Virus genome (UHGV): UHGV-0328628
Direction: 5' to 3' (one strand)
DNA from: a virus
Length of the DNA: 42,773 nt
Part shown: positions 1,924 through 42,773 of the stretch, one piece after another
Layout of the letters: each line of letters begins with the position of its first letter
How positions within the stretch are numbered: position 1 is the first letter of the stretch
Translations under genes and position numbers: made by a program
Notes under the pieces: generated by a model
What the model was told of the DNA's origin: nothing
Seen by the model: the letters and a program-made list of their open reading frames with translations, nothing else
Databases searched by the model: none

Positions 1924-4900
1924 CTAACTCCCAGTATATAAAGCTTGATCAAACTTTTTACCTAACTGATTATTTGTGGTATTAGATATTTTCTCTCCAT
2001 CTAAATTAACAACTGAATCTTTAGCTAATATCTTGGCTAATAAGTTGTTTTGTTTAATCATCAAGGCAACGATCGTTTCCAAAGTTGGGCTTGATTTGCT
2101 ATCAGCAGTAGTTCCAGCAGGCGAAACACCTAATTTATCCATTGCGATCCCTAGTAGTTGCATTGCACGCGATCTTTTAGCAGAATCTAAAGGTATGATT
2201 ATCTCTGGTTTATTTCGTTCGCCCGCTTCAATGATTTGATGCTGATTAATAATTCCTCCATTGGCAAAACCTTTAATCCGACGACCGGAAGGTCCCCATC
2301 CTGAACGTCCGTACGGCAGATCGCGTCGCCAGTTGGAATTATTGAAGAAGGCCATTAACTGATCGAATCCTTTTAAAATATTCCCGTATCCCTTAACCTT
2401 ATATGCATTAAAGGTTGACGGAATATACTGTAAAAGCCCTTGTGCTGGGTTCCCGTTTGCCATATTGATATCCCATACTGCTGAGCTTTGTCTGATTCTT
2501 TCATTACCACCAGATTCACGCTGGATTTGAGCTAAAATACCATTTAATTCGTTTTGAGATAGTGATTGACCCATTAATTTCGCTGCGCGTTTTACTTGCG
2601 CTGCCCAATCTCCGCCTTTTCCAGTGTCAAGACTGCCGCCAGTAAATATATCGCCAGAACCCATAGAACCATTCAAATGAATATGGTCATAGTGATCATT
2701 ATCTGGCCAAGGAACCCATTTTCCTGATTTTCCCTGTCCTGATAGACCCATACGGTCTCTTACCTGACCATTAGTTATGACGTAAGCAATCTCTCGAGGG
2801 AATTTTTCAAACGCGTAATCAGCTACTTTTTTGTTTTCAGGTGATCCATTCATTGAGGACGGATAAGCAATATCTAAAGCTTGATGCTTTCCGTGGTAAT
2901 AAGGATCTCCTTCTCGAAACCCTGATGTAATAGTTAGACCACTGAACTTGGCCATTATTTTCTGTGCAACATCAACTAAATACTGATAAACGTTATTAGC
3001 GTTCATCGCTCCGTCAAAGCTACCCGCGCTCATCGAGTCAAACATTTCTTTAACCTTAGCTGTCAACGCATCTTTAGCTTTTTTCAATATTCCGCCACCG
3101 ACATCTAAAGGCCATTTAGTCAGACCACCGAGTAAGTTCGACCCAAGTAACTTAGAAACCAGCTTGCCCGGATCGTCGATATAATCCATCACATCCCCAA
3201 TGGCATTTTTAACACCATCAAGAATACCTGAGCCAACATCTTTAACATTCGACCACAAGTTAGAGAACAGACCGCCTGTACCTTTTGCATACGCGAAGGT
3301 TGAGCGTTTTTTACCCATCAACATAGCTGTATCGTGTGCAGGAATAACCTGCGTTCCGGGCTCACCATACATGGTAACGTTTTGACCTTTTGGAATGAAC
3401 GCTTGCCCATTCGGTCTTACGACCATTTCAGCGCCAGCGCCATCGTTGACCTTCATTATTCCGCCTGGATGCCCATCTGTTCCCTGAGCATAAGCAGGCG
3501 CCCAATGTTTGATCTTATCTCCGCCAAGTTTTTCTAGTACCCAACTAGCACCATCAATAATCAAATTGATTGGCTTTTTAACAGCATTCATTGCTGCTTT
3601 AAAGATTGATTCAAAAGCATTTTTAACGGCTCCGGCGCCTGCTTTAATCCCATCAGCAATTTTACCAGGTAGAGCTTTCATCCAGTTAACAACTGTCGTG
3701 ATACCATTTGAAAAAGTATTTTTTATTGTAGTCCAAAGTGATTTGATTACATTGACCAATGTATTTTTCAGGTTTGTTACGTGAGAAGTCAAATTAGAAG
3801 CCCAATTTCTTATTGCGCCCCATGTGTTTGATATTCCGTTTGAAAAAGTAGATTTGACACCATTCCAAAGTGACTTAATTAAATTGACGAATGAATTTTT
3901 TAAGCCGCCGACTTTACCAAGAGTAGAGGAAATCCATCCCGTAACCGACGAACCGACACCTTGAATCCCTTGAGTGAAAAGATTTCTAGCACCATCCCAC
4001 AATCCTTTAACGGCACTTTTGAATCCTGTCGCCAATCCTTTAACGCCTTGTAGCAATCGTTTAAAGAACATAATTTGAATGAAATTCCAAATAGCTTCAA
4101 TTGCTCCTGAGAAGAGTTGCTTAATACCTTCCCACATTTTTCCAAGGTCACCAGTAAAGATACCAGTAAAAATTTTAATAGCACCTTGAATCGCATTCAA
4201 TAATCCTTTTACTAGTCCAATCACATTGTCTATAAATCCCATGAAAAGAGTCATTACAATTTTGACGACTGGTTGAATAAATACAAAGAAATTTTTGATT
4301 GCTTCGATGATCTGCTTTCCGTTTTGTTCCCAGAAGAGAGTTAGGGACTTGCCGATATCGCCTAAAGCCTTACCGATTTTTGAAATGATTGGAATAACAT
4401 AAGGAGCTAATGTACTAAACACGCCTTTTGCAATCTCAATGGCAACCTCTAACATTTGCTGGATATTTGTAAATACTGCACCAAAATAAATTTTTATGTC
4501 TTCTACAACTTTTTTAATCTTAGCGATATCATCAGGCTTTAAACCCAATCGTTTTAGCATGCCATCATCAGCTTTTTCATTACCAAAGATTGAACCAATC
4601 ATTTTTTTAATGTCCCCGGTGAAATTTCTGATTTTATCAATCGTTTCATCAGTCATGCCGGTCATTTTCAAAATATTCAGCGACTTTTCTTGTTTTTCTC
4701 CAGTGGCAAATATTCCGTTAAAAATATTTTTAACTTGCATAACACGTTGTTTTGCTTTGGCTAACACTTCCATTGGAATGATCTTATCGAGATCAAATAA
4801 AGCCTTTGAATACTTTTTGGGATCATTGTTCTCAGCAAAAACAGTGAAAAGATTTTTAAATATGCCGATTGCTTTATTGACTACTGGTGCAATTACTCCT

Positions 4901-15774: not shown

Positions 15775-15971
15775 TACTCTTCCTCCTTAATCCATTTAAA
15801 GAATCTAAACCACGCTAATGTCTGTTCTTTGCTGTCATGCTCTGGACTGCTATGACTCTCTGCTTTCAACACGTGGATAGCAACATCATTCACAGTATAT
15901 GAGTCTGGCAGTTTATCTTTTGCATGATTGAAACATTGCTGCAAGTATTCAAAGTATGTCATCTCAGCCAC
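15774..15971 (-). CDS. Hypothetical small protein
   Basis: 65 aa; overlapping-coupled gene chain. Confidence 0.4.
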   Translation of the reverse strand: MAEMTYFEYLQQCFNHAKDKLPDSYTVNDVAIHVLKAESHSSPEHDSKEQTLAWFRFFKWIKEEE

Positions 15972-16162
15972 CTCTTTATATTCTCTTGAATGTGTTTGTC
16001 ATTAAACCAACCGATACCAACGAGAACCAACTTGTACTGATCAATTTCATTAGGTGTCGCTTCGTCCGTTAGTTCAACAATCGTATAGCGTTTAGCTATC
16101 TGCGCAGACATTGCGCGCTGCGGATAGTTCCCTGCTAATGAAATGTACCAGTGGGTTCTCAT
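15959..16162 (-). CDS. Hypothetical small protein
   Basis: 67 aa; its start forms ATGA with the upstream 58-aa ORF. Confidence 0.4.
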   Translation of the reverse strand: MRTHWYISLAGNYPQRAMSAQIAKRYTIVELTDEATPNEIDQYKLVLVGIGWFNDKHIQENIKRWLR

Positions 16163-16344: not shown

Positions 16345-16493
16345 TTTAGTTCCCTCCTTATATTGTCCTGTAAGCGTTACAATGATATAATCCCTTTAGG
16401 GTGAATCCTTTAAAAGTTTGTTTTTCACTTGGCCATCGTGTAAACGGTGGTCTATTTTTGTATGCAAAATAAAACAGCCTCACGAGGAGACTG

Positions 16494-16676
16494 CTAAATT
16501 CTGTATTTTCCTTCCGGATCCGCCATCAACTCTACTGAGCGATCTAATTTCATTCCCCTGACTTTATTGTTCAATGATTCTTTAGCCTCAACGATTTCTT
16601 CAACAGAGACATCTTTTCTTCGAGTCAAGTTTTTCAAATATGCTGCTTCACCTTTGATAATAGCTTCTTGTAACAT
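16494..16676 (-). CDS. Hypothetical small protein (true start probably MLQEAIIKG)
   Basis: RBS GGAGGAGG 7 nt upstream of the internal ATG; followed by a hairpin plus U-run terminator. Confidence 0.45.
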   Translation of the reverse strand: MLQEAIIKGEAAYLKNLTRRKDVSVEEIVEAKESLNNKVRGMKLDRSVELMADPEGKYRI

Positions 16677-16724
16677 TTCAATTCCTCCTCCAATAATCGG
16701 CCATCGAAAATGTAGGTTTTCGGC

Positions 16725-16750
16725 CAAAATAAAAAGACCGCCGAAGCGAT
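16725..16750 (-). terminator. Rho-independent terminator (GATCGC-UUCG-GCGGUC then UUUUUAUUUU) downstream of the tRNA-like elements
   Basis: 6-bp stem with UUCG tetraloop followed by a U-tract on the minus strand. Confidence 0.6.
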
Positions 16751-16830
16751 CTTGATTATGTATTTGTGCAACCTACATAGCACCGTCATCGTGCTGTTCC
16801 TCCACGTACCACTTATATCCTCGGTTGCTA

Positions 16831-16905
16831 TTGACGCGGCCGGATTCGAACCGACCTCATTTCCAACTCTAACAGTCAGACGCATCACCAATGATGCTAC
16901 ACGTC
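16831..16905 (-). tRNA. tRNA-like element with canonical acceptor stem, D-arm (G18G19) and T-arm (GGTTCGAATCC) but no recognisable anticodon stem; possibly a degenerate or pseudo tRNA
   Basis: 7-bp acceptor pairing TGACGTG/CGCGTCA, U8, D-stem GCAT/ATGC, T-stem GTCGG/CCGGC with TTCGAAT loop; the anticodon region does not fold canonically. Confidence 0.4.
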
Positions 16906-16983
16906 AACTCGGAGGAGCTACCTCCTAGCATATGCTTTCGGGTCAGATACTTAGCGTTGGCCAGTTCACTAAGTCCTCCCTAA

Positions 16984-17087
16984 GTCACTGGCAAGGATTC
17001 GAACCTTGCACTGTTTTGATAGCCATACATCAGGGCAGGTCTATCACCTCTACCCATTTATAGCGTGTACCCTTTCCGCCACAGTGA
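16984..17087 (-). tRNA. Second tRNA-like element (about 104 nt): acceptor stem GTCACTG/CAGTGAC plus T-arm CAAGG-TTCGAAT-CCTTG, with a long non-canonical central region
   Basis: Perfect T-loop consensus and 7-bp acceptor complementarity 100 nt apart; too long for, and not foldable as, a standard tRNA by eye. Confidence 0.3.
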
Positions 17088-17187
17088 CATAAATAACGGC
17101 ATGCTCAATGTAGAAATCATTATTTCATGCCGCCAATTGTTTACCTACTCTGTTTCCGCAAAGTGGCAATGTAGTCAAAAAGAGAAT

Positions 17188-17283
17188 AACCCACCAAGCT
17201 AGACGTTTTTATGTTAAGAGGTATAAGGAGAAACTTCATGCCAATAAAGTTAGTTTGAGTCGTCTGCTTGGTGGATTATCTAC
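17188..17283 (-). terminator. Long imperfect inverted repeat (about 19-bp arms) followed by a U-rich tract downstream of the ArpU gene
   Basis: ATAACCCACCAAGCTAGACG ... CGTCTGCTTGGTGGATTAT; on the minus strand the stem is followed by UUAUUCUCUUUUUG. Confidence 0.4.
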
Positions 17284-17354
17284 TCTATCATTTTATTTCA
17301 TAATTACCCCCGTAAACGGTAGTCTTTTACCCCTGTAAACGGCGCGTTTTACGG

Positions 17355-17819
17355 TCATTTTAGTTTTAACCTGCGCGCGAGCATGGTTACTACTGCCGTA
17401 TCTTTTTTTCTACACGCATCTTCTGATAGGTGAATTTGTTTGCTAACCTTTACCCAATTAGGTAAATCTTTTGGCCGTCTGCATTTACTACCATCGTCAC
17501 TAAGATATCTTGCTTGCAGCAGTTCAACTGCATCATCACTTAAATCCTCAATAAGATTTTTGACAATCTCAACATGTCTTACAGTTGATAAGAATTCTTC
17601 GTTGGTCCATACTCTTTCCGCTTCTGCCTCTTGCGGCGCGATATTAGATGACACATGGGAACCACCGATATTTTCGTCTGCTTCTCGATAAGGATGTCTT
17701 AGACTCTCTTCAATGGATTTAATTTGCTTTGCTTCATAGTTATGACACCGCAATACTTTTCTTGCGTAATTCCTTGCTTCTTCACTGACCCTATAAAATT
17801 TCAATAATTCGACCTCCAA
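17355..17819 (-). CDS. ArpU-family phage late transcriptional regulator
   Basis: 154 aa; position upstream of the packaging genes; ArpU-like sequence features. Confidence 0.65.
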   Translation of the reverse strand: MEVELLKFYRVSEEARNYARKVLRCHNYEAKQIKSIEESLRHPYREADENIGGSHVSSNIAPQEAEAERVWTNEEFLSTVRHVEIVKNLIEDLSDDAVELLQARYLSDDGSKCRRPKDLPNWVKVSKQIHLSEDACRKKDTAVVTMLARRLKLK

Positions 17820-20661: not shown

Positions 20662-21420
20662 TTAGCTGCCGTTTTCAATTTCCATGATTGCTTTAAAGAT
20701 CGGATATACTTGTTGTGGTTGGACCGCATTCCCTAAAGCAATCAATCTATTTTTGTCCAATTCTCCGGATACCCCATCATCCACTCGACAAATGCCGGGT
20801 TCGGGTACTTTCCAATGTAGCTCTCGAAATTCTCGCCAAGACTTCCAGGAAGAACTTTGCCATGCTTGCCGTTCGCTTCTGAAGGTGCAAGCGGGCGAAT
20901 CCTCTTGTATGATTGACTGGCTGTCGGTGTTGCAAGCAACGATAAAGAACCTTTGCCTTTTGTGGATGGCCCCGATATCACTAGCTGCAACACTGAAAAC
21001 CCAAACTTCGTAGCCTTCTTTTTCCAAGTCACTAACGGTTGTTTCGAGTCCACGGTTAAGAATTCCTGGTACATTCTCGCCGACAACCCAACGAGGTTGA
21101 ATTTCTTTGACGAGCCTTGCGAACTCATGCCACAAGTAGCGATCGTCGTTTTCAGCCTTTCCTTTTCCTGCAAGTGAGAAAGGCTGACAAGGAAATCCTC
21201 CGTGAATAATTCCAATTGTTCTTGCATCTATCCCACTACTTTCTAACAACTGAATATCTAACTGTTTCACATCTTCAAACTGCGGCACATGCGGCCAATG
21301 CTTTTTCAATACTTTTTTTGGAAAATCTGCGTTCTCACAAAAGGCGACAGTTTTAATTCCTGCCCATTCTGCTGCTAAGTCTAATCCGCCGATCCCCGAA
21401 AAGAGAGACAATGCTTTCAC
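20662..21420 (-). CDS. DNA (cytosine-5) methyltransferase, apparently frame-disrupted (motifs I, IV, VI, VIII and X in this frame; motif IX-like segment in the +1 frame, ORF 20742..21227)
   Basis: FSGIGG (I), PCQ (IV), ENV (VI), HKRQRFFIVA (VIII), LGNAV (X); the overlapping frame encodes FVEWMMGYPENWT resembling motif IX (RECARVMGYPD). Confidence 0.6.
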   Translation of the reverse strand: MKALSLFSGIGGLDLAAEWAGIKTVAFCENADFPKKVLKKHWPHVPQFEDVKQLDIQLLESSGIDARTIGIIHGGFPCQPFSLAGKGKAENDDRYLWHEFARLVKEIQPRWVVGENVPGILNRGLETTVSDLEKEGYEVWVFSVAASDIGAIHKRQRFFIVACNTDSQSIIQEDSPACTFRSERQAWQSSSWKSWREFRELHWKVPEPGICRVDDGVSGELDKNRLIALGNAVQPQQVYPIFKAIMEIENGS

Positions 21421-28624: not shown

Positions 28625-29336
28625 TTACTTCACCGCCAATAACTATAAATTCATCAATTACACAACCTTTTCTGTCGTCCAATCTGTTTTTGGCATAAAC
28701 ACTTTGAGTAGGACTAAGCACTAATCCTCTTTTTTCATTACCATCTTCATCTTTTTTAACTACTAATCTCCCGACAACATCACATAAGCCGAGGAAATTA
28801 TTTAAAATCTTTGTTCTAATATCTGGCATTGATCGAGTGAAGAATTGTCCATTCATTTCCGTATACGTATCAGTTGTTTCCCACGCTGTTAGTACTACTC
28901 GGCATTCCATGCTATTTAATGCTCTGAGACTTCTCAAGTTTATAAAATCAGTTCGTTGATAATCAGCCTGCGAGGGCACACCGTTGTTCTTCCCTTTTTT
29001 TCCTAGATCTTCTAATTGTGCTTTGAATAACTCAGATAAGTTGTCTACACAAATGTTGTCAAATTGTTCTTCATATGCCGATTTGTTTTTTATTAAATCG
29101 GCTATTGTATCAAGCCATTCCTGCCAAATATCGGATGAGTTTAATTTCCATACATCAATATTTTTTTTATTCGGATGGTTTGCTAATGTGGATGATGAAC
29201 CATCGACATCCAAGACTAAAGATTTGCCAGGGAGATAACCTAAAGAATATGTTTTTCCCATACCTGGATTCGCATATATCATGTAGGTACCTTTATCCAC
29301 GGTTAAATTTTCAGCTTTGAATTTTTTTACCATCAT
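28554..29336 (-). CDS. Sak4-like RecA-fold ATPase (AAA_24 family)
   Basis: Walker A IYANPGMGKT; phage replication/recombination module context. Confidence 0.75.
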   Translation of the reverse strand: MMVKKFKAENLTVDKGTYMIYANPGMGKTYSLGYLPGKSLVLDVDGSSSTLANHPNKKNIDVWKLNSSDIWQEWLDTIADLIKNKSAYEEQFDNICVDNLSELFKAQLEDLGKKGKNNGVPSQADYQRTDFINLRSLRALNSMECRVVLTAWETTDTYTEMNGQFFTRSMPDIRTKILNNFLGLCDVVGRLVVKKDEDGNEKRGLVLSPTQSVYAKNRLDDRKGCVIDEFIVIGGEVSVPIETISKQSGNRSEKPSSNGE

Positions 29337-29863
29337 TCATACCTCCATTTGTAACCATATGCCGTCTCTCTGTTCATGATCTGCCTTGCCGCACGACTGA
29401 TGTTTATAGAGTTCCCGTTCACGAATTTGGCAGCATCTTTTAAAAAACTAAATCTCCTAAGCTCTTTTCCATCTAAATCAAGTTGAACAATTTCTTTTCC
29501 TTTCCCCTTTCTTTTAGAAATAGCAACTCTCAACATGTGATTTCCATGATTATTGTTTTCTTTTACCGTTACCCATTCTAAATTTTGCAAATGATTATCA
29601 TTTCTGATTTCATTGATATGATTTACATGAGGTTTATTCTCGTTGTTTGGTATGAATGCTTCGGCAAGTAATCTATGCAGGTAAAATTTTTTCGGTTTTC
29701 CATTTTTGCATAGCCTGACCATCATGTAGCCATTCCCATTGTCTGAAATTTTTAAGTAACCAGTTTTGCAACCTTGTCGGTACTTACTTCGAATATTTCC
29801 AAGATTACTAATTTCATATTCTTTTTCATAACCAATGATTGAAGTCCAGTATTCAAATTCCAT
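29333..29863 (-). CDS. Free-standing HNH homing endonuclease (NUMOD4 / HNH_3 type)
   Basis: YEISNLGNIRS N-terminus, H-N-H region VNHINEIRNDNHLQNLEWVTVKEN; inserted between Gp157 and Sak4. Confidence 0.75.
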   Translation of the reverse strand: MEFEYWTSIIGYEKEYEISNLGNIRSKYRQGCKTGYLKISDNGNGYMMVRLCKNGKPKKFYLHRLLAEAFIPNNENKPHVNHINEIRNDNHLQNLEWVTVKENNNHGNHMLRVAISKRKGKGKEIVQLDLDGKELRRFSFLKDAAKFVNGNSINISRAARQIMNRETAYGYKWRYE

Positions 29864-37649: not shown

Positions 37650-38759
37650 TTACACGTCTAAATACCAACGTGTTTCGGTTAGATCATTAAATCCGTCTCT
37701 TGTGTCACCTTTCGGATCATTGGTGCTACGAATCATAATAATGATTGAATGACCTGCAACATCCTTTTGATTGAATTCAATCTGGAAGCCTGCAGTATCA
37801 TTGCGGTTATAAACCTTTGCAGCGTCCGCTCGTGGCAAGTCTTTCAGCTTGATACGTTTCAATTCTTTACCCGTTGTACGGTCGAGAATAAAAGCATATT
37901 GATGTTTGTGAGTACGAGTACTCCATCCTTCTGCTTTAATTTTCCCAGCCATTGCGCCGAATCCATCAACGTGACCTTTACCGTTCCCGACTTCCATTAC
38001 CGAATAATTCTGTCCAGCATGGTAGATATCTGTTGCTTCAGATGGATTTGGAGCAGGCAGTGTTGTGTATCCGTTATCGGTAATTCCAGTTAAATCGACA
38101 TTACCATCCAATCCGCCGCCAACATATGTGGAAGTGAATTGATAGATCGCCACGCCATCCATACTTGGAAACACAGACCATACTGGATATGGAGTGACGT
38201 TGTAATTCGGATAAGCGGCCATCCACAAACTATCAGGGAATTCAGCTAAGATTTGCTGATAGTATACGTTTTGCAGAGTAAACGGTTTGTAAGAGTAATA
38301 CATCGGTGTGTAGCCGGCATCTCGAATCCTTCGCATACCATATAGAATTGTGTCTGTATTCGCTTGCTTATTTCCACTGGCTCCATGCTCAAAGTCTAAT
38401 GCCACGATTGAACCACGAGGTGTTTTTACTTTCGGTAGAAAGTAATCCATAGTAGTTTTCGCAATACTCATGTTTCCCCACGTGTCGTACCAAATATACG
38501 TGTGAGCCCGTTTTCCTTGTGCTAAAGCAGAATTAACTTGGCTTTCATATGTCCATTGATTATAAATTCCGCCAGCGTTGTATCCTCCAATTTGAGCGAT
38601 TGCGAACTTATCATGCGCATAACCAAATTGTCCTTGTGCTCCCTGATAGATTGCCCAGTCAACCCCTTGATCACCTTTCGCCGCATCCACATTCCCTGGG
38701 AAAATTGGCAATAAAAAAAGAGCCGTAACCAGGCTCAACAAAGTAATTCTCTTTTTCAT
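37650..38759 (-). CDS. Endolysin: secreted GH25 muramidase with a cleavable N-terminal Sec signal peptide and a C-terminal cell-wall-binding region
   Basis: RBS GGAGG 5 nt before ATG 38759; MKKRITLLSLVTALFLLPIFPGNVDA signal; GH25-like GVDWAIYQGAQG...FAIAQIGG. Confidence 0.75.
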   Translation of the reverse strand: MKKRITLLSLVTALFLLPIFPGNVDAAKGDQGVDWAIYQGAQGQFGYAHDKFAIAQIGGYNAGGIYNQWTYESQVNSALAQGKRAHTYIWYDTWGNMSIAKTTMDYFLPKVKTPRGSIVALDFEHGASGNKQANTDTILYGMRRIRDAGYTPMYYSYKPFTLQNVYYQQILAEFPDSLWMAAYPNYNVTPYPVWSVFPSMDGVAIYQFTSTYVGGGLDGNVDLTGITDNGYTTLPAPNPSEATDIYHAGQNYSVMEVGNGKGHVDGFGAMAGKIKAEGWSTRTHKHQYAFILDRTTGKELKRIKLKDLPRADAAKVYNRNDTAGFQIEFNQKDVAGHSIIIMIRSTNDPKGDTRDGFNDLTETRWYLDV

Positions 38760-38769
38760 GTGATTCCTC

Positions 38770-38967
38770 CTATTTTTTCGAATTGTATGCTGAGACACCT
38801 GTAACTACTCCTAAAAAAGTAGCTACAGCATTAATTGTTAGCACAGTCATATCCGCGCCACCCCAACCGTATGCTTTTCCAAGTGTGCCAACTAAAACAG
38901 ATGCAGCTGGCAACACTGTGAGAACTGCCCATTTAATAATTTGGTAATACTTGTCCGGTAAAATCAT
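38770..38967 (-). CDS. Holin (65 aa, 2 TM; start MILPDKYYQ)
   Basis: RBS AGGGGGG 6 nt before ATG 38967; stop TAG overlaps the lysin RBS. Confidence 0.65.
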   Translation of the reverse strand: MILPDKYYQIIKWAVLTVLPAASVLVGTLGKAYGWGGADMTVLTINAVATFLGVVTGVSAYNSKK

Positions 38968-38978
38968 TTCAAACCCCC

Positions 38979-39239
38979 CTATAATTTCGTTAAGAAATAG
39001 CCTAATATAGTAATACCTAAACCGATCATGTAACCCCATGACCATTTATTGTTTGCTTTAATTTCTTTGATGTCATCAGCATTGTTGAGTGCAATAGAAT
39101 ATGCGTGATCCGCCACATCTTTCGCAGCATCCGCCTTCTCTCTCAATGCCTCGTAATTATCAAGTTTTGTTTCAATGCGCACTAAGCGCTCAATAACATC
39201 TTGTGCAGTATCATCTTTCAAAACTCCCCCGCCTTCCAA
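38979..39239 (-). CDS. XhlA-like protein (coiled coil plus C-terminal TM)
   Basis: Coiled-coil N-terminus and C-terminal TM WSWGYMIGLGITILGYFL; PBSX-like position before the holin; start codon uncertain. Confidence 0.55.
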   Translation of the reverse strand: MEGGGVLKDDTAQDVIERLVRIETKLDNYEALREKADAAKDVADHAYSIALNNADDIKEIKANNKWSWGYMIGLGITILGYFLTKL

Positions 39240-39276
39240 CTAAATAATTAGCCCCGTTAAAAACGAGGCTAAATTG

Positions 39277-39402
39277 TTACTCTGCCAATTCTGGCAAATC
39301 CATATCTACTAGAATCTCTTTCACTTGCTCGCGAATTAGACCTGGTACTTGTTCAATCGTCTTCTTGCCTTTAATAATTAAAGTCGCATATACTACGGCC
39401 AT
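39277..39402 (-). CDS. XkdX-family protein (41 aa), second tandem copy
   Basis: MAVVYATLIIKGKKTIEQVPGLIREQVKEIL; RBS AGGAGGTGG. Confidence 0.6.
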   Translation of the reverse strand: MAVVYATLIIKGKKTIEQVPGLIREQVKEILVDMDLPELAE

Positions 39403-39439
39403 TTCTTCCACCTCCTTTCTGAGCAAATAAAAAGCAATC

Positions 39440-39553
39440 CTAATCCGCAGTTTCTGCATCAAGGATTGCTTGTACTTCATTTCTGATTGTTCTAGGAACT
39501 TCTTCAATAGTCTTCAGGCCTTTCTGGATTAAATTCACGTAAATATTTGCCAT
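39440..39553 (-). CDS. XkdX-family protein (37 aa), first tandem copy, missing from the ORF track
   Basis: MANIYVNLIQKGLKTIEEVPRTIRNEVQAIL; RBS AGGAGG; the ORF-track entry 39277..39507 is an out-of-frame merge of the two copies. Confidence 0.55.
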   Translation of the reverse strand: MANIYVNLIQKGLKTIEEVPRTIRNEVQAILDAETAD

Positions 39554-39901
39554 CTATACTACCTCCTTTGCTGCATCGGCTGGTACCAGCATTTCGTATA
39601 CTTCGGCTAAAGCTAATTGAGTATCTGTTAGTTGGTCGTTAAGAACCTCATTTTGCTTTGTTAAGGTTTTAACATCAGCTGTAGCTTTCGTGTAAAAGTT
39701 CTCTAACAGACTAATCTTCTCAGTGCTTGCCATGTATTCTACTGGACGCCATACGTTCAATTTCACATCGAAGAACTGTAGCATTAGATCTCGATTGGCA
39801 TCAGGTTCTACTTCCGTGTATGGAAACTTTGTTTCAAAATCCTCTGCTACTTCTGTAGTCTTGCATCCAAACGGATACAAAATTTCGTAAATTGTTTTCA
39901 T
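39554..39901 (-). CDS. XkdW-like protein
   Basis: 115 aa; position between the tail-fibre gene and the XkdX genes, as in PBSX. Confidence 0.45.
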   Translation of the reverse strand: MKTIYEILYPFGCKTTEVAEDFETKFPYTEVEPDANRDLMLQFFDVKLNVWRPVEYMASTEKISLLENFYTKATADVKTLTKQNEVLNDQLTDTQLALAEVYEMLVPADAAKEVV

Positions 39902-39912
39902 TTATCTTCCTC

Positions 39913-41772
39913 CTATAATTTGTTTTTAGCTAAGTACGTGACTGTTCCAGCATACCAAGTATCTTTTAGTAGTATAGAGTGCGCGGTTAAAGTGGAACCG
40001 CCCTCAGTAAATTTAACTATGCTTGTTGTTCCGCCTGTACTTGTTATTCCGATATATTGAGGTTCGGAAGTATCTGCCTGAAAATCAGCCGCGATACCCC
40101 AAATAATAGATTGGTCTTTTGCGAAATCATTGCCTATTCGTGTTTTAAAGTTAAACACTGCTTGAACCTCATCACCGTATCTTACAAAGGTAATATAACC
40201 ACTCGCAATTTCAGTTGGAAAATCTGCATTGGAATATTTTATAGTAACTACTCCTTTATGTGCAAGAACATTATTTCCATTTACCATTAAACCGTCTCGA
40301 AAGTTTTTTAGACCACCAATAGTCTCGTTACCAGCAATGCTTACAAATTTATTCTCCACGAACTTTTTAATCGACTGCATTACTCGCAGCGGCGTCATAA
40401 TCTTCTTGTTATCTTCACCCGTTTCAGCCTCTTCTTGAGTCGCCAAGTTTTCTACGCGATTGGCCGCTATCATTAACTTAAGGTGTTCATTCATTGATAA
40501 ACGGATTTTTATCTCAAGATTTGAATAATCCGTATTTACTGTTGATGGCGTCACCCCATCAGACGGCTCTGCATACGAAATTGCATAAAGGAAGCCATCA
40601 TCAGAGATATAATTATTTGCTGCTGTACCAGTTGAACTATACTCTAACTTAGCTAATGTAGAACCGCCATTCACTCTGGTTCCACCCCATGAATTATTGT
40701 TAACCCATACTTTGTAGCTTAATTTGTTTCCCGTAGGAGAAGTTCCGTATCCCCAAGTTGCTGGCTTGATCTCGGTCAAAATATTTTTTATAACCTCAAT
40801 TTTATCGGAAATTTCATGTGCACCACGATCATTGAAAAAATCATCTCCGAGTGTTCGAACCAATACTTCTAATACATTCCATTTGTCACAAATTGCTGAA
40901 CGATTTCCATTCACCTTGACCTGCCATTGTAAGATATTGTTATCTAGTTTAGCGGCTTGATTATAGCCCTGCTGAACCATCTCAGTTAAATAATCACTCG
41001 GCTTCATAACGTCTGAGTATGCTCCTGTTGCCAGGATATTGGGGTTTTCTAGGACGGACCCTTTTACTTTGTCTCGCGTATCGATAGTAATTGTCCACTC
41101 AACAATTTCTTTCCCAATTAACTGATAGATCACGTTTGCGGAGGATTCTGCTTTCGTGAATACGTCATTGTCATCAATCTTCTTATTTATTTCATCGATG
41201 TGAGCATTCAAATTCGTGTTAGCTGTCGTGATACTTTGTTCTAACTGAGTGATCTTACTTTGAGCTGTCGTAACGTCAGCAGTTAGACTATCAATCAATG
41301 CTTTAGCTTCTGATTCAATAGTATTAATCGTTTGATGATACTCATCTATAATCTCGTTGAAACCTTGCCAGTAATAATCCTCTAATTCAGGCGTGTTCAA
41401 ATCAATCGGGCTTCGCTTGATGTCAAAGGTAAAACGTCCAGCGGTATCTAATGAGCGTGAATCAGGTAATTCAATATAAATTGAACCAGTGACACGCCCG
41501 ACATAGCCTAAAATATTGTCTTCTAAAACAATCGACACAATTCCGTTTATCGCATCTTCGATTACCGCATGATAAATGTGGCGGCCGCCAACAAAATCTA
41601 AGCAAATTGGTACGATCGTTCCTTCAGACAACGTTTGATTAACATAATCCTTTTGCAGTTGAAAAATCATCTTAGCGGTACCTTTGTCATGCGACCAGAA
41701 AACCACTCCAGTCGGAATAGGAGTGGTCGCTTTTGCCTGAATGACAATGATTTCTTCATTTGTTTTAAACAT
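39913..41772 (-). CDS. Tail fibre / receptor-binding protein (XkdV-like)
   Basis: 619 aa; central coiled coil; C-terminal beta-rich domain. Confidence 0.6.
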   Translation of the reverse strand: MFKTNEEIIVIQAKATTPIPTGVVFWSHDKGTAKMIFQLQKDYVNQTLSEGTIVPICLDFVGGRHIYHAVIEDAINGIVSIVLEDNILGYVGRVTGSIYIELPDSRSLDTAGRFTFDIKRSPIDLNTPELEDYYWQGFNEIIDEYHQTINTIESEAKALIDSLTADVTTAQSKITQLEQSITTANTNLNAHIDEINKKIDDNDVFTKAESSANVIYQLIGKEIVEWTITIDTRDKVKGSVLENPNILATGAYSDVMKPSDYLTEMVQQGYNQAAKLDNNILQWQVKVNGNRSAICDKWNVLEVLVRTLGDDFFNDRGAHEISDKIEVIKNILTEIKPATWGYGTSPTGNKLSYKVWVNNNSWGGTRVNGGSTLAKLEYSSTGTAANNYISDDGFLYAISYAEPSDGVTPSTVNTDYSNLEIKIRLSMNEHLKLMIAANRVENLATQEEAETGEDNKKIMTPLRVMQSIKKFVENKFVSIAGNETIGGLKNFRDGLMVNGNNVLAHKGVVTIKYSNADFPTEIASGYITFVRYGDEVQAVFNFKTRIGNDFAKDQSIIWGIAADFQADTSEPQYIGITSTGGTTSIVKFTEGGSTLTAHSILLKDTWYAGTVTYLAKNKL

Positions 41773-42773
41773 TAACTAAACACCTGCCCTTTAGTGACAA
41801 CTAATCCTAACTGAACTTTGTATTTAGTTGTCGAACCCGAGGTAGTTGATGATGCATCTGTTACTGTCGCACCTGAATCCGCCGAAATCCCTACTACATT
41901 ACCAGACCCTGTGTTCGTTCCCGAAAATAAGGCGGTTGACATCGCAGAAGCCTTTAATAGAATGGATTGATCCGCGAAGTGAGAGTAATAGACGTTCATC
42001 TTGGAATTTCCATTCACATACAGTGCATTGTAATTCGTGGATGACGATGTATTTTCAGCACACTTAACTTTATTCAAAGCGAGATACCCTCCTTGTTTAC
42101 AAAAGAAAGCACACGTATTACCATCGGTTTGAATGGCATTCGCTGTATCAACGGCTTGCAAGCCATAGATGTGAAAATAGCCTGCTGAGGAGGCGAAACC
42201 TATTGAACGAACTTTTACTGGTAAATCTACTTTGCTCAGGTCAAGACTATCCACATTTTGAATTGTTCTGATTGTTAATGATACACAGAATATACTTGCT
42301 AGGATGACATTTTCCAAATAAACCCCATCATCAACCCAAATCGTTGCACGAGCTGAACTTATCAATGGGATTTGATTAACTGCCATTTGAATAGTCTTAA
42401 ATGGTTTTTCCTCCGTCCCATCGCCATTTTTATCATCGCCTTTTTCTATCGAAACAAATAAGTCGATCGTTGCACCGTAAGTCCCCATTAATTTTCCAAT
42501 TCCGTTGTTCAGTTGCTCCATCTGTTTTTGCTGATTAAGCAACGTACCGTTTGTATTCTCAACATCTTCATCATGTCTATTTTCTGCAGCAAGTAATCTT
42601 GATTCTAAAGTATCGAATGTTTCACCTTTATTATTTACTCGCGCGTCCACTACTTCGTTTGGCGAATCTCCACCACTATGCAAAACCACATTATCAATGC
42701 GCTTATTCGTCACATCGATTTTCTGGTTTTGTCCTCGAATGATTCTATTTAAGATATCCACATTATCATTAAA
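41772..42773 (-). CDS. Tail fibre/baseplate protein with probable beta-helix (pectin-lyase-like) region; 5' partial at the window edge
   Basis: Frame stays open to the window end; GDGTEEKPFKTIQMAVNQI motif typical of beta-helix tail proteins. Confidence 0.55.
   Translation of the reverse strand, partial: FNDNVDILNRIIRGQNQKIDVTNKRIDNVVLHSGGDSPNEVVDARVNNKGETFDTLESRLLAAENRHDEDVENTNGTLLNQQKQMEQLNNGIGKLMGTYGATIDLFVSIEKGDDKNGDGTEEKPFKTIQMAVNQIPLISSARATIWVDDGVYLENVILASIFCVSLTIRTIQNVDSLDLSKVDLPVKVRSIGFASSAGYFHIYGLQAVDTANAIQTDGNTCAFFCKQGGYLALNKVKCAENTSSSTNYNALYVNGNSKMNVYYSHFADQSILLKASAMSTALFSGTNTGSGNVVGISADSGATVTDASSTTSGSTTKYKVQLGLVVTKGQVFS

Follow-up and report, generated by a model that had tools for sequence, protein, structure and literature searches.

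The DNA analysed here, referred to below as the window, is 42,773 nucleotides long and represents the complete, circularly permuted contig of a temperate Enterococcus phage, with lysis and baseplate genes in the interval 37650-42773. An initial annotation had drawn attention to two tRNA-like elements between the late regulator and the packaging genes, and this placement holds. The upstream neighbour of the locus is the gene for a late regulator of the RinA/ArpU type (phrog_36; 17819..17355); downstream lie small ORFs, an HNH gene and the genes for TerS and TerL. Both elements are encoded on the minus strand, as are all late genes, and both have the features of a cloverleaf, namely a 7-bp acceptor, a D arm with GG and a T arm with a loop of the UUCRANY type. 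The T-loop consensus attributed to them is indeed exact: the window contains exactly two copies of GGTTCGAATCC, each read on the minus strand (at 16852..16842 and at 17005..16995), against 0.03 matches expected from shuffled sequences, and none of 100 shuffles gave two. The 7-bp acceptor complementarity was likewise found in both, as GUCACUG/CAGUGAC in the upstream element and as UGACGUG/CGCGUCA, with one U.G pair, in the downstream element.

The region around the two elements is rich in signals. Just past the stop codon of the regulator gene, a repeat search identified two 16-nt direct repeats, CCGTTTAC[G/A]GGGGTAA, with 23-nt spacing (17304..17342, minus strand). Since ArpU, RinA and LtrC bind direct repeats located just downstream of the regulator gene (PMC3753634), these sequences are candidate activator boxes of a late promoter. 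A −10-like motif, TGATAGAGT, can be read on the minus strand at 17282..17290 and is conserved in contigs L014-L017; a sigma-70 promoter scan returned no call at this site. Late transcription would putatively start around position 17275, as judged from the sequence. The next feature on the minus strand (17176..17274) is a leader hairpin, CCACCAAGCAGACG...CGTCTAGCTTGGTGG, with U-rich sequence on its 3′ side; both of its arms are altered together in L017 (TTATCAAGCGGACG...CGTCTCGCTTGATAA). Directly 5′ of the upstream element, the interval 17089..17134 (minus strand) folds into a long hairpin, GGCGGCAUG...CAUGCCGU (17134..17095), trailed by (U)AUUUAU. The base of this stem is kept, with G.U variation, around different interiors in L009, L014 and L007.

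The spacer between the two elements (16907..16983, minus strand) folds into two hairpins. One of these, GGAGG-UAGCU-CCUCC (16925-16911), lies a few bases 5′ of the downstream tRNA; L007, L008 and L014 share it, and L003 has a covarying version (GAAGG...CCUUC). Past the downstream element, a third RNA module at 16768..16828 (minus strand) folds through conserved ends, GCAACC...GGUUGC, around a variable middle; the same ends are present in L005, L009, L014 and L017. The terminator scan placed an intrinsic-terminator-like hairpin, AAGAUCGC-UUCG-GCGGUCUU with a U run, at 16724..16753 on the minus strand; the UUCG-loop hairpin itself spans 16753..16734 and is conserved in L009, L014, L015 and L017. 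Altogether the scan gave four terminator-like sites against 1.2 expected. A second terminator is present after the first late ORF. Thus, the bracketing described in the initial annotation is correct: the long hairpin with AUUUAU precedes the elements, and the UUCG-loop terminator with its U run follows them.

The order of regulator, direct repeats, tRNA-like RNA and tRNA is common to the window and to phages phiFL2A and phiFL3A, which carry three TTGGCGG repeats at the equivalent place after the regulator. In phiFL2A the succession is arpU, repeats, a minimal tRNA-like RNA, tRNA, terminator and terS; here terS comes directly after the terminator, whereas in the window small ORFs and the HNH gene intervene. 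In phiFL2A, as Quiles-Puchalt et al. demonstrated (PMC3753634), repeats of this kind are bound by ArpU, which activates the terS promoter. Because the layout of the window matches that of phiFL2A, where terS expression is ArpU-dependent, both RNAs would probably be part of a leader of about 600 nt in an activator-dependent late operon. The earlier suggestion of a discrete transcribed RNA locus therefore needs qualification: the region does look like a discrete RNA locus, but rather than forming an isolated unit it would belong to the late operon, as part of its leader.

The upstream element is a tRNA-Leu-derived tRNA-like RNA (hereafter TL) delimited through folds and family comparison to 16984..17088 on the minus strand; all its parts are on this strand. 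Its length, 105 nt, is close to the 104 nt or so originally estimated. The acceptor (17088-17082/16990-16984) consists of seven Watson-Crick pairs. U8 and G9 precede a D arm (17079-17063) with the stem GCG/CGC and GGG in the loop. The T arm (17009-16991), GCAAGG-UUCGAAU-CCUUGC, has a 6-bp stem, so that the acceptor/T stack comprises 13 bp rather than 12. A U occupies the discriminator position (16983). The place of the anticodon and variable arms is taken by an insert of 52 nt, made of a first cargo hairpin with 6 bp and an 11-nt loop (17055-17033) and a second one with 5 bp and a 6-nt loop (17032-17017). No 7-nt anticodon loop is found in TL, nor any leucine anticodon (NAG or YAA) in a loop context. 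One of the possibilities raised at the outset, a tRNA carrying an insertion, is in effect what TL represents, with hairpins replacing the anticodon arm.

The downstream element (16831..16906, minus strand) is a tRNA-Lys-derived tRNA with a remodelled anticodon arm, as indicated by ARAGORN, Rfam, folds and sister scaffolds. Besides its acceptor, it displays the U8, the 4-bp D stem (GCAU/AUGC) and the GG of the D loop that had been reported for it (the latter as G18G19), a T arm of sequence GUCGG-UUCGAAU-CCGGC and an A as discriminator; CCA is not encoded. The anticodon stem (16880-16876/16866-16862, minus strand; UCUGA/UUGGA) closes a 9-nt loop, CUGUUAGAG (16875-16867), and the minimum-energy fold of the arm is a 7-bp stem with the pentaloop GUUAG. 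In either conformation, a stem is present but the canonical 7-nt loop with U33 is not. Hence, of the statement that neither element folds a canonical anticodon stem, the part concerning the loops stands, neither being normal, but a 5-bp stem with a 9-nt loop does exist in the downstream element. ARAGORN and Rfam, both among the tools proposed for checking the locus, gave divided answers. ARAGORN labels the downstream element "tRNA-Stop (tta)", and the Rfam tRNA model scores it at 34.9 bits, above the gathering score of 29 and well below the 58-63 bits of canonical sister tRNA-Lys genes; TL drew no call from either program.

The "Stop" label does not denote an ochre suppressor or stop-codon recoding, an identity rejected in view of the 9-nt loop, of ORFs that are intact under the standard code and of the 15 of 37 genes that end in TAA. 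A 6-bp D stem and a UCA variant in L091 brought tRNA-Sec into consideration; this was rejected on account of the 7-bp acceptor and of the missing long variable arm, and also because a canonical Lys sister gene has an identical D arm. Comparison with other temperate phages revealed that the downstream slot has a common acceptor, U-G-R-C-G-U-G/C-A-C-G-Y-C-A followed by A, while anticodon arms differ between phages. Among 23 distinct sequences in this slot, six are canonical tRNA-Lys(UUU) (58-63 bits in Rfam where scanned), four have the loop UGAAUAG, four are of the window type (loop centre UUA or UCA), five are truncated and one has an 8-nt loop; Arg-like and Ile-like forms also occur.

TL is a member of a large, unannotated family of leucine-tRNA-shaped RNAs in Enterococcus phages. 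The first 15 nt of TL are found exactly in at least 120 viral contigs and the last 26 nt in 13. The family was defined by the arrangement 5′ GUCACUG-UG-GCGGAA...ACGC, a 6-bp T stem with a 7-nt loop, and 3′ CAGUGAC, around a variable middle. Among the matches listed, this yielded about 75 distinct members of 53-223 nt, spread over more than 100 contigs of Enterococcus phages or prophages. The listed members all keep the acceptor GUCACUG/CAGUGAC, a D arm of the tRNA-Leu type and a covarying T arm, and in all of them the anticodon and variable arms are replaced by 0 to about 190 nt, folding into hairpins that are unrelated between classes. The minimal form, of 51-53 nt and devoid of any anticodon domain, belongs to phiFL2A and phiFL3A. 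In the window, the family model recognizes a single site, TL, through two half-matches of 25.7 and 17.4 bits.

Several observations point to selection acting on the scaffold. In 49 trimmed members, 97.7% of cells are paired, as compared to 30-44% when the partners are slid, and compensatory double changes affect four of the six T-stem pairs. The 3′ acceptor strand pairs with the 5′ strand, which is fixed by the search pattern, in 98.5% of cells. Single-sided changes in the family stems mostly yield G.U pairs on the minus strand, the strand of the element. Moreover, D-loop and T-loop types are linked, dividing the family into three subfamilies: D loop AGGGUAG with T loop UUCGAUU or UUCGAAU; D loop GUAGAAG with T loop GGCAGUG, UGCGAUU or UGCAAUC; and D loop UAGGUAG with T loop UGCAAAU. 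This linkage is expected if both loops touch at the tRNA elbow. Within the class of the window, cargo hairpin 1 still pairs despite two single-sided changes (GGGUAG/CUGCCC versus GGGCAG/CUGUCC). About two thirds of members have U immediately past the acceptor and about one quarter have A; where this base was tallied, the 3′ flank is U-rich and CCA is never encoded. The combination of a conserved scaffold of the tRNA-Leu type with a hypervariable middle across the family argues for selection over decay. Thus, the view of the locus as a degenerate phage tRNA was right as to tRNA descent but mistaken for TL, which is no one-off and belongs to a large family whose scaffold is conserved.

The pattern was present in 15 contigs of a scan of 185,579 genomes, one per species; 13 of these contigs came from 11 Enterococcus species, and in at least eight of the 13 phage genes adjoin the element. 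A BLASTN search of phage records with the 800-nt region gave no match, and a short-query BLAST detected the family in 39 GenBank records of temperate and virulent Enterococcus phages; none of the 39 has an annotated feature under the element. The matches include the temperate phages phiFL2 and phiFL3 and the 150-kb virulent Schiekviruses EFP01, EFDG1 and EfV12-phi1. In virulent phages, the element occurs in islands with tRNAs, tmRNA and ROOL RNA. That of EFP01 contains eight tRNAs and a ROOL RNA, and here the element begins 2 nt after a weak tRNA; in EFDG1 it begins 2 nt after the phage tmRNA. The element is deleted or interrupted in L014 and L016, and is therefore dispensable. Rfam 15 has no family matching TL, either in the whole window at the gathering score or in the interval 16600-17400 at E<=10; in the latter scan only the downstream tRNA is real, weak hits to MicF, rsmX and snoRNA models being noise. 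Full-text searches of the literature retrieved no description of this RNA family.

Sister loci suggest where the two elements come from. TL has a leucine-type D arm, U8-G9-GCGGAA...ACGC. Contig L099 contains a genuine tRNA-Leu(UAA) of 85 nt whose acceptor (GTCACTG/CAGTGAC) is identical to that of TL; its T stem has the normal 5 bp, and it ends in A73 and CCA. A tRNA-Lys(UUU) lies 90 nt downstream of it, and these two genes are likely to represent the ancestral pair. UUA and AAA are the commonest Leu and Lys codons of this phage. Owing to the L099 pair and to the Lys(UUU) forms found in the downstream slot, the descent of TL from a phage tRNA-Leu(UAA), and of the downstream element from a tRNA-Lys(UUU), is well supported. 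Equally well supported is the conclusion that both elements are tRNA-derived, with the anticodon arm remodelled and the rest kept, and that normal decoding is precluded.

A search for the D-arm pattern HTGGCGGAADDRGWAGACGC, with a different base at position 7, identified 120 viral loci, 58 of which ARAGORN calls tRNA-Leu. The window copy departs from this pattern by one D-loop base (UAC for UAG) and by a G before U8, which the search design excluded. About 40 of the 120 matches form closed tRNA-Leu scaffolds, 97-373 nt long, whose acceptor sequences differ from that of the family. These mostly have A73, some contain extra T-arm-like hairpins, and at least one (373 nt) is a tRNA-Leu with a group I intron. 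Many are the sole tRNA-like gene of their locus, and in L181 and L205 the scaffold lies within the replication module. The Enterococcus family may be one branch of a broader class of leucine scaffolds.

Other identities were considered for TL and rejected. A tRNA-Leu interrupted by a group I intron would require an intron of at least 200 nt; the insert measures 52 nt, and the search for Intron_gpI in the window and in L001-L017 was negative. Introns of any kind are likewise improbable as, with introns allowed, ARAGORN returned scattered and inconsistent identities and no call for the class of the window. TL is neither an attP site nor a fragment of a host tRNA-Leu, and it is not a host tRNA, because the pattern is rare (only 13 Enterococcus contigs in the 185,579 species genomes), the lengths are tRNA-like and phage genes adjoin. 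A tmRNA was dismissed since ARAGORN made no such call in the window and pair 3:70 is C-G instead of G3.U70. A YrlA or Y RNA-like molecule was discarded as well, the interval 16600-17400 containing no RF02553 match at E<=10. As to possible protein partners, no tRNA-related enzyme was found among the window ORFs scanned. In 62 of 105 loci the element is followed by a 67-aa protein (16162..15959 in the window), which lacks any family annotation and whose confident structural model (pLDDT 91.6) has no fold match in the PDB. Its homologues are confined to Enterococcus, especially the avium/raffinosus group, and it is absent from virulent phages.

TL nonetheless resembles a number of known RNAs. With tmRNA (SsrA) it shares a tRNA-like top half and an insert in place of the anticodon arm, and tmRNA undergoes tRNA-like processing. 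Unlike tmRNA, the family lacks both a tag reading frame and the G3.U70 pair of alanine identity; it has an intact, leucine-type D arm, and its inserts, of 0-190 nt, are mutually unrelated. YrlA (Rfam RF02553) is also a non-coding mimic of the D/T-arm elbow of tRNA that occurs in phages, and in L060 an RNA island that includes a family member also contains two sub-threshold YrlA-like hits. In YrlA, however, the RNA ends reportedly close the Ro-binding stem and the "acceptor" is capped (an observation ascribed to Chen et al. 2014), whereas in the family the ends form the acceptor stem. T4 "species 1 and 2" (rnaC and rnaD) are small stable RNAs of the T4 tRNA cluster, matured by tRNA-processing enzymes; as here, small phage RNAs are encoded along with tRNAs, but they are not known to be related in sequence to the family, and the hosts differ. 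Closer in anatomy are the minimal tRNA-Leu substrates of LeuRS (Larkin et al. 2002, reviewed in PMC9976931), reduced to acceptor, D arm and T arm. These are laboratory constructs with A73; the window copy, in contrast, carries U73, its T stem has 6 bp, and it contains two additional hairpins. Finally, counter-defence phage tRNAs (tRNA-Tyr and tRNA-Lys of T5 against Retron-Eco7 and PARIS; tRNA-Tyr of T6 against Septu) are also phage-borne and bear on conflicts with host tRNases, and the downstream slot in sister loci is occupied by tRNA-Lys(UUU), a classic tRNase target. The known examples decode, replacing the cleaved host tRNA, which the RNAs of the window cannot normally do. As TL fails the defining tests of tmRNA, YrlA, minimal tRNA-Leu and decoding tRNAs, it is a member of none of these groups. 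We count it among the tRNA-mimicking phage RNAs, with an anatomy and a distribution that are solid and a mechanism that is putative.

What could such an RNA do? The acceptor, T-arm and elbow half of a tRNA is what RNase P, RNase Z and the CCA-adding enzyme read. The retention of the acceptor, D arm and T arm together with the loss of the anticodon domain suggests that any partner would recognize the upper half of a tRNA and not the anticodon loop. A decoy against anticodon nucleases, one of the roles raised at the outset, is conceivable. We tentatively favour the explanation that the two elements are tRNA-derived RNAs, excised in the manner of tRNAs, that serve as non-decoding mimics of the tRNA upper half; taken as a whole, we hold this explanation to be plausible, at somewhat less than an even chance. 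Transcription from the late promoter, activated by the regulator encoded just upstream, would run through both elements; RNase P, RNase Z and the CCA-adding enzyme would excise and finish both RNAs like tRNAs, and the products would build up as stable, L-shaped molecules. As mimics or decoys, these would engage in trans a host protein able to recognize the upper half of a tRNA, the leading candidate being a tRNA-targeting immune enzyme. The variable lower half would be either irrelevant or selected as uncleavable. Precedents exist: Septu cuts the variable loop of class II tRNA-Tyr; PARIS, Retron-Eco7, PrrC and OLD also target tRNAs; and some tRNA-targeting defences are countered by phage tRNAs (PMC13096335, PMC11555353, PMC10802454). 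Furthermore, a tRNA-Leu without anticodon and variable arms is still charged by LeuRS if A73 and the D/T-loop contacts are intact (PMC9976931). Some points speak against the mimic explanation. An anticodon-nuclease decoy would be expected to retain the bait loop, yet that loop is discarded; late expression is late timing for counter-defence; the element is dispensable, being deleted or interrupted in some phages (L014, L016); recognition by LeuRS is at odds with the U73 of the window copy, as the enzyme needs A73 (PMC9976931); and the invariant acceptor, rather than reflecting a sequence-specific partner, could result from recent spread by recombination. A bolder proposal, that TL belongs to a widespread, undescribed class of anticodon-stripped class II tRNAs kept as sponges for tRNA-targeting immune enzymes or as non-ribosomal aminoacyl carriers, strikes us as possible but doubtful. 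Related leucine-tRNA scaffolds, 97-252 nt long and with different acceptor sequences, are found in many phage contigs that are unrelated.

The mimic explanation was weighed against four others. The locus could exemplify a natural tRNA scaffold, whose tRNA half provides processing and stability while the variable insert is the functional RNA, such as an aptamer, a decoy or a pseudo-antitoxin. The inserts are indeed structured, with pairing kept within a class (as in the GGGUAG/CUGCCC and GGGCAG/CUGUCC variants above, or in the 88-nt class, where L028 and L087 differ by two compensatory pairs); tandem copies carry different inserts; and other small RNA modules, including an abiF-RNA-like hairpin, are found in the same leaders. 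Yet phiFL2A and phiFL3A retain an "empty" scaffold of 51-53 nt, the insert classes have no motif in common, and antisense matches of the insert to the phage are at chance level (longest match 10 nt, versus 10-11 nt for shuffled inserts); we hold a functional insert to be rather unlikely. We regard as improbable, too, that the folds are cis-acting punctuation, serving only as RNase P and RNase Z cleavage signals that detach the leader from the late mRNA or process adjacent RNAs and leave excised fragments devoid of function. The location in the late leader would suit such a role, as would the fact that the conserved parts are those read by processing enzymes and the 2-nt distance separating the element from the tmRNA of EFDG1 and from the weak tRNA of EFP01. 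On the other hand, processing enzymes need neither a fixed acceptor sequence nor three co-varying classes of D and T loops, a real tRNA just behind the element would already suffice, and the tandem copies resemble genes.

A third alternative, that the RNAs are aminoacyl carriers, charged by LeuRS in the members with A73 and excluded from the ribosome so as to feed a non-ribosomal transferase or tie up the synthetase, appears quite improbable. Leucylation of minimal tRNA-Leu with A73 and intact D/T-loop contacts (PMC9976931) makes it conceivable, particularly in the AGGGUAG/UUCGAUU subfamily, which keeps U8, A14, A15, G18G19 and U54-U55-C56-A58, and in the quarter or so of members that have A73; phage Mu Mom offers a parallel in that it modifies DNA using Gly-tRNA (PMC13219725). 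However, the window copy and some two thirds of the family carry U73, the window ORFs that were scanned include no transferase of the GNAT or Fem type, and two subfamilies are devoid of the canonical G18G19 or the canonical U54-U55. Lastly, both elements might be decaying pseudogenes of the tRNA-Leu(UAA)/tRNA-Lys(UUU) pair with no present function, an idea to which we give little credence. The likely ancestral pair of L099, the truncated or interrupted versions in L009, L014, L015 and L016, and the dispensability of the elements in some phages are all compatible with it. Decay, however, should hit all parts of the molecule, and yet the 3′ acceptor strand pairs in 98.5% of cells and the D and T arms persist, through compensatory changes, in some 75 distinct variants among the matches listed. 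Only the anticodon domain is replaced, in temperate and virulent phages alike, and because variation is confined to that domain this alternative fits worst.

The tRNase conflicts described so far involve decoding phage tRNAs; here, only the upper half of a leucine tRNA has been kept. The family is present both in temperate Enterococcus phages and in virulent ones of the type used in therapy, and the minimal 51-nt form is carried by phiFL2A, a genetically tractable phage of E. faecalis. If the RNAs act as decoys or aminoacyl carriers, they would constitute a new kind of phage counter-measure and a natural example of a "tRNA scaffold", and they would give a handle on unknown tRNA-directed defences in enterococci.

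Directly 3' of the late regulator gene, on the minus strand, the window carries two 16-nt direct repeats (17304-17342) and a −10-like sequence, TGATAGAGT (17282-17290, same strand), which are probably the activator boxes and late promoter, respectively. The repeats of the temperate Enterococcus phages phiFL2A and phiFL3A read TTGGCGG, whereas those of the window have another sequence. Two hairpins resembling intrinsic terminators (16734-16753 and 16473-16495, minus strand) stand between the late promoter and the HNH/terS genes. Late transcription must pass both of them, by virtue of either leakiness or antitermination. Conserved hairpins in the leader, the initial segment of the late operon (17274-17191 and 17160-17135, minus strand), could have a role in this read-through. 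A few bases before the 5' end of the downstream, tRNA-Lys-derived tRNA, a further hairpin, GGAGG-UAGCU-CCUCC (16911-16925, minus strand), pairs a Shine-Dalgarno-like sequence with its own complement. It is kept in many loci and shows covariation in contig L003.

A third RNA module is found 3' of the tRNA (16768-16828, minus strand) and recurs in contigs L005, L009, L014 and L017, the ends GCAACC...GGUUGC being conserved and the middle variable; in L005, it directly follows the tRNA-Leu-derived tRNA-like RNA. No known family matched this module. In three contigs (L016, L049 and L094), most of the tRNA-like RNA is replaced, after GTCACTGTGGCGGAA, by an ORF for an HNH homing endonuclease. The replication module of the window itself includes an endonuclease gene of the NUMOD4/HNH_3/NUMOD1 type (29333-29863, minus strand). 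Homing endonucleases adjoining phage tRNA genes have recently been linked to the amplification of anti-defence loci (PMC13096335).

In virulent Enterococcus phages, the tRNA-like RNA shares its island with other structured RNAs: a ROOL RNA in EFP01 (L151 6241-6827; 264.8 bits) and a tmRNA with the tag AKNEELLAVA* in EFDG1 (L272 1151-1498). Across the inspected 30 kb of the EFP01 record, no RNA gene is annotated, which leaves both the ROOL RNA and the tRNAs of this phage without a feature; the EFDG1 record lists tRNAs and leaves out the tmRNA. Two YrlA-like matches in L060 (4026-4325), from a virulent-phage island that also includes the tRNA-like RNA, score 45.6 and 34.3 bits, both below the gathering score of 69.

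The Enterococcus-type pattern of 5' acceptor and D-arm was also matched in assemblies labelled 'Streptomyces sp. P17' (L145) and 'Vibrio olivae' (L141). The former contains a full tRNA-like RNA together with an Enterococcus-type downstream tRNA, and the latter match is a 518-nt contig; both most likely reflect assembly contamination. Outside the Enterococcus family, tRNA-Leu scaffolds that span 97-252 nt and differ in their acceptor stems occur in unrelated phage contigs (L153, L181, L205, L161, L201, L229, L175, L187, L230 and others). Most have A73, some contain additional T-arm-like hairpins in their interior, and in many cases no other tRNA-like gene is nearby. The L229 scaffold contains a perfect leucine anticodon loop, CUUAAAA, shifted to the 3' part of the insert.

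Among neighbouring proteins, a 67-aa product (phrog_1202, MRTHWYISL...; 15959-16162, minus strand) is confined to Enterococcus. In 62 of the 105 loci with enough sequence, its gene follows the tRNA-like RNA at a distance of 0.25-2.7 kb. The structure was modelled with high confidence (pLDDT 91.6), and no fold match was found in the PDB. An ORF matching the Pfam profile of C5 cytosine DNA methylases (20662-21420, minus strand) covers only the first half of that profile (positions 1-172 of 324) and may be truncated or split.

In some leaders, the tRNA slot is occupied by a hairpin similar to the abiF RNA motif (RF03085). The L023 copy (2036-2072, minus strand), whose sequence is identical in L056, scores 26.2 bits (E 0.03), which is below the gathering score of 37. 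A phage-borne copy of an Abi-associated RNA, if genuine, would fit an arsenal of anti-defence RNAs.
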